A DNA stretch of 64,000 bases from a virus. A model generated the notes under the pieces. It ran no database searches and was not told the origin of the DNA. It saw only the letters and a list, made by a program, of their open reading frames with translations. A program made the translations under genes and the position numbers. Positions 5,118 through 7,115 of the stretch are shown in pieces (position 1 is the first letter of the stretch; each line of letters starts with the position of its first letter). The DNA is taken from IMG/VR virus record IMGVR_UViG_3300013426_000031; one strand, given 5' to 3'.

Positions 5118-5813
5118 CTAAGGTCTTAATAATTCGGGGTCTAAGTCAACACGTCCAGCATTTGCATTATTTAAATTATCAATAATATTTTGAAATGTTT
5201 CATTAAAAGCTAAAGATAAAGTATAAGCTTCACCTTTTTCAACAGTATCGGGTATTAAACCATAAATATCTTCTTTAGTTTTTGGATATTCAGTTTGATA
5301 AGAAGAATTTTTATTTAAAGTATCTGATTTATCACGAATTTCAAATAATCTAAAAATAATTTTCTTCATTAAATTTATATCAGCGTTTTTAGCCAATCTT
5401 TGTAAATTTAATTGCGCATAAAGGCTATCAACTTCTTCGCTTTGGCATCCATAATTACATTGACCAGTACAACCTAAAGTACAAGTATTACCACAACTAA
5501 CAGCACAAGCCAAAGCACATGCGGTTTTACATCCGCCGTCGCAGCCACTAACACAAGTACCCGTACAACTAGAACAAGTACCTGTACAACTATAACAGCC
5601 ACCGCTGCAGCCACTTCCACAATCTCCTTTACACCCATCCTAACAGCTATTACCGCATCGGCTTGAACATACATTGCAATCATCCATGCAACTACTAGAT
5701 TTGCAACCACTTGTATCACCGGGGCCATGATTTGGATTATCTTTATGGTGACTATCCCAACATTCAGAATTGCAGTCATTTTTGCATCCGCCGCCACAAC
5801 CATTACAGGCCAT
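5118..5813 (-). CDS. Cys-rich CxGxC-repeat protein #1 (N-terminal Cys repeats, C-terminal non-Cys domain), one TAG
   Basis: ATG at 5811-5813 after GGAGGG RBS. Start overlaps the TGA stop of the upstream radical SAM gene (ATGAAATATGG). TAG at 5640-5642 joins ORF-track pieces 5474..5803 (wrong frame) and 5118..5513. Confidence 0.6.
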
Positions 5814-5816
5814 ATT

Positions 5817-7115
5817 TCATCCCTCCTTCCATTTTATTAAATAATTATATTCTTCTTTTGGAATTAAATTATTTATAAAATCATAAGAAAATTTTTGAAT
5901 TTTATCATATGATTGTTTATCATTAATTATTTTACAATAATACATTGTTGCCAAAGCCTGTACTTTAATTTCTTCACAAATTGTATTAGGTCTTGTATTG
6001 AAATCTCCGGTCTAATCATAGCAGCAACCTAAGCAATATGAGCAATTGCTAGCTATTGGGCATTCTAAGCATTTTTTATCAAACATATTTTTACGAGAAC
6101 ATTCTTTAAATGCTTTTAGCCATTCTTTTTCTTTGCTTGTATATCCTATTCCATGCTCAATATTACCAATAATAGCTGGTTCTCTATTCAAAGAGCTTTC
6201 CATAAATCTAATACAGGTATAGATGTCACCCTTATAGTCTAAAGCGAACATATTATTTGATGTACCACACCATGCGGTATCTACGTTATATTCATCTAAA
6301 GGTTTATAATGGCTAGCATCAAATATAATAAAATAAATTTTATCCTGTAAATTATTTTCTTTTATATAATCAGCTATTAATTTTAACTAATTATAATATT
6401 CTTTAGCATAATTGATATTCCATACATCTTCAAAAACACAGTTCGCATGAATAACTGTAAAGCCTAATTTTATCATATTTTTAAATCCTTTAAATAAATA
6501 AGATACATTATCAGGACTAATGGTAATTTTTGTGCTGGTATTATTATAATTGTTTAACTAATCTAAAGCAGCTGAAATAGCTAAGTCGTAGCTTCCTTTA
6601 CCATCTGGAAACAATCGACAATTATCATGTAATTCTTTACATCCATCTACTGTAATTCCTAAACTAATATGTCCCTAATATTTTTTAAGATATTTCTATA
6701 CTTTATCAGTAAAATATAATGTACCATTAGAAGAAAAATTATACATATGAAACAATGACCATAGATCTTCGGGTTCCTCAGCAAAACGCTATTCAAAATA
6801 GTCCGTAATTTGGTCTATTAAATCAATTTGTAGAAATGGCTCTCCTCCTATAAAATCAATAATTAAACCACTTGTGTCTCCAATATAAAATGGAGTGCTA
6901 GGTTTATGTTTACAATCAAAGATATAATCAATAAATTTTTTAGCAGTTTCAAATGACATTATATGAGTTCCTTTATTAAACTAATAACAATAAGAGCAAC
7001 ATAAATTACAAGCATCAGTTACTTGAAAAGTAATAGTTCGAGCTGCTTTAACATCAAACTATTCTTCAAAAATTTTTATTATATAATCACTATATTCAAT
7101 AGAATCATTTAACAT
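5817..7115 (-). CDS. radical SAM/SPASM-domain enzyme #1 (anSME-like), 9 in-frame TAG
   Basis: AAAAGGAG RBS then ATG at 7113-7115. Translation with TAG as sense gives ITFQVTDACNLCCSYCYQ (CX3CX2C) ... FIGGEPFLQIDLIDQITDYF ... C-terminal Cys-rich SPASM (CLECPIASNCSYCLGCCYD). Ends TGA 5817-5819. Paralogous to 51774..53129 and 27536..28864. Confidence 0.75.

Follow-up and report, generated by a model that had tools for sequence, protein, structure and literature searches.

The viral DNA analyzed here (IMG/VR virus record IMGVR_UViG_3300013426_000031, a stretch of 64,000 nucleotides, hereafter the window) contains at its locus 1 a gene for a radical S-adenosylmethionine (SAM)/SPASM enzyme, rSAM1, followed almost immediately by a gene for a cysteine-rich protein, Cys1. 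We hold this identification, and the anatomy of the locus described below, with high confidence. Locus 1 is one of three copies of a module composed of a small accessory protein, a radical SAM/SPASM enzyme and the probable protein substrate. As regards function, chances are roughly even that the module serves the late thioether cross-linking of a structural protein. A name for the enzyme family exists already, and the system is therefore not one of a new kind. What is new in relation to the available libraries and papers is the architecture in which cysteine repeats come first and an orphan domain follows, the divergent small partner of the locus 1 enzyme, and the family of small partners as such. 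New are also the strong association of the module with phages and its fixed position, the fused fibre-type domains and the presence of three old paralogues in one recoded genome. Locus 1 had first been pointed out by a prediction made from the sequence alone (the original prediction), whose claims are taken up where the results bear on them.

The enzyme of locus 1

If TAG is translated, the rSAM1 frame runs for 432 codons free of TAA and TGA despite a GC content of 27%, with eight in-frame TAGs (first bases 7061, 6983, 6791, 6698, 6677, 6560, 6389 and 6014). The standard code breaks the same gene into nine pieces, the longest of which is an open reading frame (ORF) of 79 amino acids (aa) at 6012..6251. 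The original prediction had rightly held that genetic code 15, i.e. TAG read-through, is required for an intact frame and that a standard-code pipeline would shred the locus, and had noted the 79-aa fragment in the list of ORFs; its figures of 433 aa and nine TAGs were each one too high. The radical SAM motif CxxxCxxC is formed by C36, C40 and C43, and the seven SPASM cysteines are C283, C301, C349, C352, C358, C361 and C380. The prediction was to count as refuted if the table-15 translation failed to align over its whole length with two other genes of the window, rSAM2 (27536..28864) and rSAM3 (51774..53135); it does align with both from end to end, with 44% and 39% identity, respectively. 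None of the cysteines of the CxxxCxxC motif or of the SPASM set varies among the three paralogues, and the predicted enzyme family is correct. The length of the rSAM1 frame, the match to the hidden Markov model (HMM) described next and the conservation of the whole block in other contigs are more than chance would produce.

The NCBIfam family TIGR04115 ("radical SAM peptide maturase, CXXX-repeat target family") has a curated cut-off of 350 bits. rSAM1, with TAG translated as Q, matches the full length of the model with 349.4 bits; the scores of the two paralogues are given in Table 1. The next NCBIfam matches of rSAM1 are the ranthipeptide maturase PapB (176.7 bits), QhpD (108) and CcpM (106), followed by nif11-type (88), ScfB-related (86), SCIFF maturase (85.3) and anaerobic sulfatase maturase (53) models. 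It falls below the cut-offs of the PapB family (NF047865, 340 bits), the SCIFF maturase (TIGR03974, 425 bits) and the anaerobic sulfatase maturase (TIGR03942, 349 bits). The sole solved structure related to rSAM1 by sequence is that of CteB (5WGG, 68 bits). Residue 16 of rSAM1 aligns to CteB residue 86 and only about 25 residues precede the rSAM1 radical SAM domain, so the enzyme lacks the N-terminal leader-binding domain known as the RRE, the recognition element of peptides that are made by ribosomes and modified after translation (RiPPs).

The cysteine-rich protein of locus 1

The Cys1 gene (4980..5813, minus strand) starts at ATG 5813, three bases (AAT) past the TGA of rSAM1, and is preceded by GGAGG at the end of the enzyme gene, which bears out the tight pairing of the two genes that had been claimed. 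It encodes 277 aa and ends with a TAA at 4980..4982. The original prediction had ended it at 5118, in contradiction to its own code-15 reading, since 5118..5120 is the second in-frame TAG of Cys1 and not its end. The sequence past this TAG, YWI(N/E)C(L/V)K(K/N)I(Y/F)..(A/M)P, is kept in the orthologues P0001, L006, L007, L008, L012 and L087, and because of this conservation we conclude that Cys1 continues beyond 5118; the L008 orthologue has no TAG in the gene at all.

The cysteine repeats occupy the N-terminal portion of Cys1, as predicted, at the opposite end from those of loci 2 and 3. Of their 27 spacings 21 are CxxxC and four CxxC, and the residues between the cysteines are mostly G, S, T, N and D. 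Ten Cys1 orthologues have between 19 and 29 cysteines; the parts of the repeat that are conserved are the N-terminal MAC and the repeats beside the C-terminal domain (C.G.CNYGC(T/Q)SEEV). The repeat model TIGR04114, which accompanies the enzyme family, found neither Cys1 nor the corresponding protein of locus 2, Cys2, even at E <= 10, and gave the protein of locus 3, Cys3, 18.6 bits against its cut-off of 20 bits. It is an 18-position model, and such a short repeat model is a weak test on low-complexity sequence; the four-residue periodicity of cysteines is evident in all three proteins despite these scores.

The C-terminal domain comprises 154 residues, not the approximately 110 that followed from the premature end, and the attempt to annotate it gave no family: there was no match in Pfam, NCBIfam or PHROG and no tblastn match in 50,697 phage records. 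A word-indexed search of 5.8 billion proteins matched only 18 clusters, and those inspected were the same protein or its fragments. An exhaustive HMMER profile search of 1.84 billion representatives returned eight matches to the same protein or fragments and one that is likely spurious. P0001, an orthologue 61% identical to the window protein, was modelled with AlphaFold2 (AF2) as mostly helical at a moderate confidence (pLDDT 62), and Foldseek found no fold neighbour of this model in BFVD or PDB. By these comparisons the C-terminal part of Cys1 is a separate orphan domain.

Three old modules in one genome

The relationship between the domains of the three cysteine-rich proteins is different from the one first supposed. 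The N-terminal domain of about 105 aa is common to Cys2 and Cys3 (39% identity, E = 1e-18) and widespread in phage relatives, where it is always followed by repeats through a conserved junction, C..(A/S)CTGLC. Some motifs of the Cys1 C-terminal domain looked colinear with it by eye, but homology was rejected at the sequence level: BLASTP gave E = 2.2, and in hhalign comparisons with the N-terminal domain of Cys2, Cys3 and their relatives, only 8 to 19 columns were aligned, with E = 0.17 and 0.31. The order of domains in locus 1 is thus not an inversion of that in the other loci, and the proposed domain shuffling does not hold in the sense of the same two domains being swapped. It does hold in the sense that a cysteine-repeat module has been combined with different partner domains at either end.

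The loci also differ in gene order. Cys3 overlaps the end of rSAM3 by 29 nucleotides (nt), whereas in locus 2 Cys2 lies upstream of rSAM2 with two ORFs between them and is no coupled downstream partner. Between Cys2 and the small gene acc2 there is a 187-aa ORF (29170..29733, minus strand) without a family match. The identity between rSAM2 and rSAM3 is 49%, no closer than that to copies in other phages, and on this ground a recent duplication was rejected as the source of the three copies. The window genome therefore carries three old, divergent paralogous modules.

Table 1. Features of the three loci and of their surroundings in the window
Feature	Coordinates	Strand	Characteristics
Locus 1			
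rSAM1, radical SAM/SPASM enzyme	5817..7115	-	432 aa; ATG 7115, TGA 5817-5819
Cys1, N-terminal Cys-repeat region	5445..5813	-	aa 1-123; 28 Cys; in-frame TAG 5640-5642
Cys1, C-terminal domain and TAA	4980..5444	-	aa 124-277 (154 aa); holds TAG 5118-5120
acc1, small upstream gene	7131..7376	-	81-codon ORF; TTG start, TAA stop; TAGs 7257-7259 and 7245-7247
Gene directly downstream of Cys1	4381..4923	-	180 aa; weak PHROG matches only; N-terminal GTAKCHPDD
Terminator-like hairpin	7514..7536	-	end of upstream methyltransferase gene; consensus scan only
Locus 2			
rSAM2	27536..28864	-	442 aa; 11 in-frame TAG; TIGR04115 428.4 bits
acc2	28857..29156	-	99 aa; TTG start; 2 TAG; overlaps rSAM2 start by 8 nt; accessory HMM 63 bits
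Cys2	29757..30332	-	191 aa; N-domain of ~105 aa, then C-terminal CxxxC repeats; 21 Cys
Locus 3			
rSAM3	51774..53135	-	453 aa; 3 in-frame TAG; TIGR04115 421.2 bits
acc3	53116..53400	-	94 aa; no TAG; overlaps rSAM3 start; accessory HMM 94 bits
Cys3	51143..51802	-	219 aa; N-domain of ~108 aa, then C-terminal CxxxC repeats; 27 Cys
Recoding			
Suppressor tRNA, anticodon CTA	24545..24622	-	ARAGORN; Rfam tRNA 48.9 bits; reader of in-frame TAG

Small genes upstream of the enzymes

Each of the three enzymes is preceded by a small gene that the original prediction had overlooked. Of 91 related loci, 81 have a small ORF directly upstream of the enzyme, in most cases overlapping it by 4 nt. The proteins belong to no Pfam, NCBIfam or PHROG family and have no sequence match in PDB. 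The AF2 model of acc3 reached a pLDDT of 94 and shows the topology beta-alpha-alpha-beta-beta. We considered whether these proteins could be stand-alone RRE or PqqD-like proteins, and rejected this, as there is no family match and the model is not a winged helix. A 219-aa protein in a bacterial assembly (L093, 5325..5984) has two tandem accessory domains and is also encoded upstream of a radical SAM gene.

The acc1 ORF ends 15 nt before the start of rSAM1. It was present in every orthologous contig examined, and its conservation upstream of the orthologous enzymes (L001, L006, L007, L008, L012, L087 and L104) is at the protein level, with TAG and CAA swapped. The canonical HMM of the accessory family does not match acc1. 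A profile-profile comparison gave E = 0.002 over 74 colinear columns, with E = 0.13 for the reversed control. Since the HMM is blind to acc1 and the profile-profile signal is weak, we do not count it as an established member of the family; it is the positional equivalent and probably a divergent homologue.

TAG as a glutamine codon

In the window phage TAG encodes glutamine, as is seen from the Q columns of homologues, from TAG/CAA swaps and from the tRNA with anticodon CTA. The three radical SAM genes have 22 TAG columns, which we compared with 47 homologues from phages, the majority of them free of in-frame TAG. Six of the TAGs fall on conserved to nearly invariant Q columns (in CYQ, FQV, VQ and other motifs), where Q is present in 32 to 43 of the 47, and over all 22 columns the commonest residue is Q, followed by its one-step neighbours K, E and W. 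Among orthologous contigs TAG and CAA are exchanged at the same positions. ARAGORN labels the tRNA as a pyrrolysine tRNA; that reading of TAG was rejected, as the alignments favour glutamine. With read-through the long open frames add up to 75 kb of DNA instead of 59 kb, and many genes become whole again, the three radical SAM genes, an endolysin and genes for tail-fibre-like proteins among them.

All sizeable genes of the window are on the minus strand, its GC content is about 27 to 40%, and its IMG/VR relatives are contigs of about 155 kb (e.g. IMGVR_UViG_3300045988_169451). Late-gene TAG, an own tRNA-CTA and low GC are common to this phage and the known TAG-to-Gln gut phages (code 15; crAss-like, Lak, phAss-1 and others), and we conclude that it is an ordinary code-15 gut phage with a genome of about 155 kb.

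In-frame TAGs are unevenly distributed. Their density is highest in rSAM2 (2.5 per 100 codons), in the fibre-like gene 30385..32646 (2.3) and in rSAM1 (1.9), and zero in most other genes of the window. In phages of this kind, recoded codons are a mark of late structural and lysis genes (bioRxiv 10.1101/2021.08.26.457843), so the high densities point to late expression of rSAM1, rSAM2 and the fibre-like genes. Codon usage in the window is a mosaic: in GC-richer genes (e.g. 8534..9916, 13660..16134 and 44718..45890) Gln is almost exclusively CAG and TAG is absent, while in the AT-rich radical SAM and fibre-like genes (5817..7115, 27536..28864 and 30385..32646) Gln is encoded by CAA and by TAG, the latter reaching 2.5 per 100 codons. 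The tRNA-CTA belongs to a cluster with tRNAs for Tyr (26215..26299) and Gln (26304..26377) and another tRNA (26622..26716), and within this cluster lies a full-length ROOL RNA (25453..26040, minus strand; Rfam RF03087, 318 bits; gathering score 99).

The module in other phages

Enzymes of the TIGR04115 family were found in at least 134 viral contigs, with up to three copies per genome; a 43.5-kb contig of Eubacterium pyruvativorans i6 (L089) is another carrier of the module. A cysteine-rich frame adjoins the enzyme in 72 of 80 viral loci. The usual position is between the tail-fibre and lysis genes of gut phages: over 91 loci, PF12810 proteins and proteins of the tail fibre or tail collar fibre recur upstream, and an endolysin and a holin-like protein downstream, while no peptidase, transporter or immunity gene is among the recurrent neighbours. 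The Cys2 gene of the window comes right after a row of fibre-like genes (30.4 to 42.1 kb). The fibre-like gene just upstream of Cys2, 30385..32646, shares by eye the N-terminal sequence KFYDGS.LI.DL(V/I)P with a 1101-aa glycine-rich fibre-like protein of contig L167 (IMGVR_UViG_3300045988_151255).

Four substrate architectures were met in this survey. The commonest is the N-terminal domain followed by repeats, the second consists of repeats only, and the third, a rare variant of repeats with the orphan C-terminal domain, is limited to the locus-1 clade (L001-L013, L087 and L104). In the fourth, about 230 aa of repeats (starting with MACSNGCGTSC) form the N-terminus of an 813-aa protein with two glycine-rich PF12810 domains, which occurs in more than 40 near-identical contigs (e.g. 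L167, 5332..7773). This protein adjoins the 1101-aa protein, which has three PF12810 (ALK/LTK-type) domains, and both are upstream of the accessory, radical SAM and endolysin genes. L208, a syntenic relative, has the glycine-rich protein as a separate one and carries the repeats on an N-domain protein. This variety, together with L208, shows that the cysteine-repeat module is mobile between partner domains, standing at either end in different phages.

More distant radical SAM/SPASM genes (phrog_1802, about 26 to 28% identity) are present in jumbo phages of Erwinia, Salmonella and Cronobacter (MH426724, KX397366, JX094500 and others). At the DNA level no relatives of the module were found among deposited phages, only the methyltransferase being matched.

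Comparison with known systems

The system closest to locus 1 is the TIGR04115/TIGR04114 pair itself: the enzymes are of the same family, with rSAM2 and rSAM3 above its cut-off and rSAM1 just at it, and each enzyme of the window is paired with a protein made largely of CxxxC repeats. In locus 1, in contrast, the repeats are N-terminal and followed by the orphan domain, and the accessory gene is highly divergent; the genes of the window are readable only with TAG as Gln, and a single phage genome holds three copies. The CXXX-repeat target family was reportedly defined in a paper by Haft and Basu in 2011. To our knowledge its definition is purely comparative-genomic and no experimental study of it exists. 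Our literature searches gave nothing relevant on the CXXX-repeat family, on ranthipeptides in phages or on SPASM enzymes in connection with tail fibres.

Among characterized families, the best score of rSAM1 is with PapB, the SPASM enzyme that makes freyrasin. PapB is a ranthipeptide maturase which joins Cys sulfur to the beta-carbon of Asp in CX3D motifs, so its substrate has cysteines at four-residue spacing, each giving a small ring, in a manner similar to the CxxxC repeats. Unlike in the PapB substrate, an acceptor Asp is not regular here, and the substrates are proteins of 190 to 800 aa with 20 to 60 cysteines rather than a short peptide. CteB, which acts on the SCIFF peptide (thermocellin), has the same layout of a radical SAM cluster with two auxiliary clusters and also makes thioethers from cysteines, but in CteB an RRE of about 85 residues binds the leader peptide, and rSAM1 has none. 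QhpD, acting on QhpC, is a SPASM enzyme which forms several Cys thioether bridges in a protein that is kept in a larger assembly, and is thus the nearest precedent for a modified structural protein rather than a peptide. Its substrate is, however, a subunit of quinohemoprotein amine dehydrogenase with few bridges and no long repeat, and the system is not phage-borne. In the PqqD/PqqE type of system a small free-standing partner offers the substrate to a radical SAM enzyme. Common to it and to the modules is a protein of about 90 to 110 aa whose gene adjoins, and is translationally coupled to, that of a SPASM enzyme without its own recognition domain. The resemblance is in arrangement only: the acc3 model is not a winged-helix RRE, and there is no sequence match to PqqD.

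Probable chemistry and role of the product

From the above, a mechanism can be proposed, the parts of which are not equally probable. Translation of the module genes would be completed only late in infection, once the phage suppressor tRNA-CTA is present. The enzyme would then abstract a hydrogen atom by means of its radical SAM cluster and two auxiliary clusters, and the Cys sulfurs of the CxxxC repeats would be joined to carbons of neighbouring residues to give thioether rings. The nearest characterized relatives, PapB, CteB and QhpD, all form thioethers, and for this reason we assume the same chemistry, by analogy, for the CXXX-repeat enzymes; we regard this as a balanced case, neither more nor less probable than its opposite. 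A repeat of about 120 residues would in this way become a chain of small covalent rings for which no disulfides are needed, which would fit an anaerobic, reducing host. By our reasoning, a radical SAM route would be sensible for phages of strict anaerobes, in which disulfides are unreliable. The small co-translated protein is likely a helper that holds the substrate for the enzyme, because the latter is without an RRE and the genes are tightly coupled.

The modified protein is tentatively placed in the virion, a little short of even probability, because of the fibre-gene neighbours, the late coding, the size of the substrates, the lack of export and cleavage genes and the PF12810 fusion. It may be a tail-fibre-associated component, in which the Cys repeat would act as an anchor or a shaft, and the 154-aa C-terminal domain as the end that carries the function. 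In its most specific form, which we consider possible but doubtful, the proposal is that phages staple tail-fibre-associated virion proteins by a SPASM enzyme and its small partner with dozens of thioether rings, as a redox-proof substitute for disulfides, the Cys1 repeats forming an N-terminal shaft.

Several points weigh against this interpretation. The score of rSAM1 is 0.6 bit under the TIGR04115 cut-off, literature searches found no paper on that family or its chemistry, and Asp, the acceptor residue of PapB, is scarce in Cys3. On the side of the helper, the link of acc1 to the accessory family is weak, and the confident acc3 model is not an RRE fold and matches generic helical hairpins only. 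Locus 1 itself lies outside any tail module, with methyltransferase, PhoH and endolysin neighbours, the PF12810 fusion occurs in phages of another group than the window phage, and the slot between tail-fibre and lysis genes is also a classic site of cargo genes.

These points have to be considered together with other possible explanations. One is a conventional RiPP pathway, in which the Cys repeats would be the core and the 154-aa C-terminal domain a cleaved recognition sequence of the follower type, so that lysis would set free a bioactive peptide acting as a bacteriocin, a signal or a metal chelator. This would agree with the nearest named relatives of the enzyme being RiPP maturases, with the words "peptide maturase" in the NCBIfam name, with the Cys-only proteins at some loci and with the conservation of exactly those repeats that are nearest the globular domain, as expected of a recognition junction. 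It does not agree well with substrates of 190 to 813 aa that have folded domains, with Cys repeats fused to fibre-type PF12810 domains, with an enzyme that has no RRE domain, or with in-frame TAGs that would restrict expression to late infection, and neither protease, transporter nor immunity genes recur in the 91 neighbourhoods. We find a RiPP of this kind improbable.

Somewhat less probable still is that the chemistry is another one (formylglycine oxidation, epimerization or C-C cross-links), or that the Cys protein chiefly binds metal or an iron-sulfur cluster and the enzyme only matures it. SPASM enzymes catalyze many reactions, weaker matches do include sulfatase maturase, cyclophane-forming enzymes and others, and Cys-x3-Cys arrays bind metals in other proteins. 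However, the six best non-self matches, with 85 to 177 bits, are all thioether-forming or Cys-rich-peptide maturases, compared with 53 bits for the sulfatase maturase and 37 to 43 bits for the cyclophane formers, and the repeat is nearly devoid of the aromatic residues that cyclophanes would need.

A cargo or counter-defence module acting outside the virion, for example through a thiol-rich protein that perturbs the redox or metal balance of the host or, late in infection, blocks one of its defences, seems to us decidedly unlikely. The position of locus 1 among non-structural genes (methyltransferase, flotillin-like, PhoH/PIN), the frequent use of the tail-fibre/lysis junction for cargo and the three divergent copies in the one genome would suit it, whereas the adjacency to fibre genes is consistent across unrelated phages, the repeats are fused to fibre-type domains, and no link to a defence or anti-defence family appeared in the evidence gathered, in which a scan of an anti-defence library was not included. 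Finally, decayed pseudogenes with real TAG stops, to which the nine pieces in the standard code might point, are excluded by the long frame free of TAA and TGA, the retention of all catalytic residues, the TAGs at conserved-Q columns, the different TAG positions among orthologues and the encoded suppressor tRNA.

Surroundings of locus 1

On one side of locus 1 there are cytosine methyltransferase and flotillin-like genes and on the other PhoH/PIN and endolysin genes, an arrangement kept in the clade; the locus-1-type block is syntenic in more than ten contigs. The flotillin-like gene (8534..9916, minus strand) is just upstream of locus 1, encodes a 460-aa Band_7 protein and is kept in related contigs, although such a protein is unusual for a phage. 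Two contigs with a locus-1-type block, L104 (CAMELE010000010.1) and L087 (CAKQQY010000024.1), have enzymes 77% and 52% identical to that of the window and in-frame TAGs. They were binned in metagenome-assembled genomes as "uncultured Mollicutes" and "uncultured Clostridia", respectively, and look like phage contigs; the labels may point to the host or may be artefacts of binning.

The hairpin at the end of the methyltransferase gene suggests that acc1 through Cys1, possibly with the 180-aa gene downstream, form their own transcription unit. In all orthologous contigs (L001-L005, L087 and L104) this downstream gene keeps its synteny with locus 1, and it has a weak match, 13.5 bits, to the accessory HMM. 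The gene just downstream of rSAM2 (26749..27105, minus strand; Pfam Rv2632c-like, 27 bits) shares with it the motif G.AKC.P.D. These two genes possibly belong to the modules.

Conclusions

From all these results it follows that a named family which had no known product, chemistry or role is common in gut phages, where it has a fixed core of three genes beside the tail-fibre genes. Gene callers that use the standard code are blind to the locus, and the recoding explains why the module has been hidden. The three architectures, domain then repeats, repeats only, and repeats then domain, make up a ready set for tests of enzyme-substrate recognition. If the proposed function is true, radical-SAM peptide chemistry would reach beyond small natural products to large proteins of phages, and this would explain how exposed proteins are stabilized without disulfides in phages of anaerobes. 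Radical-SAM thioether cross-linking would then also be seen for the first time as a step of virion assembly.

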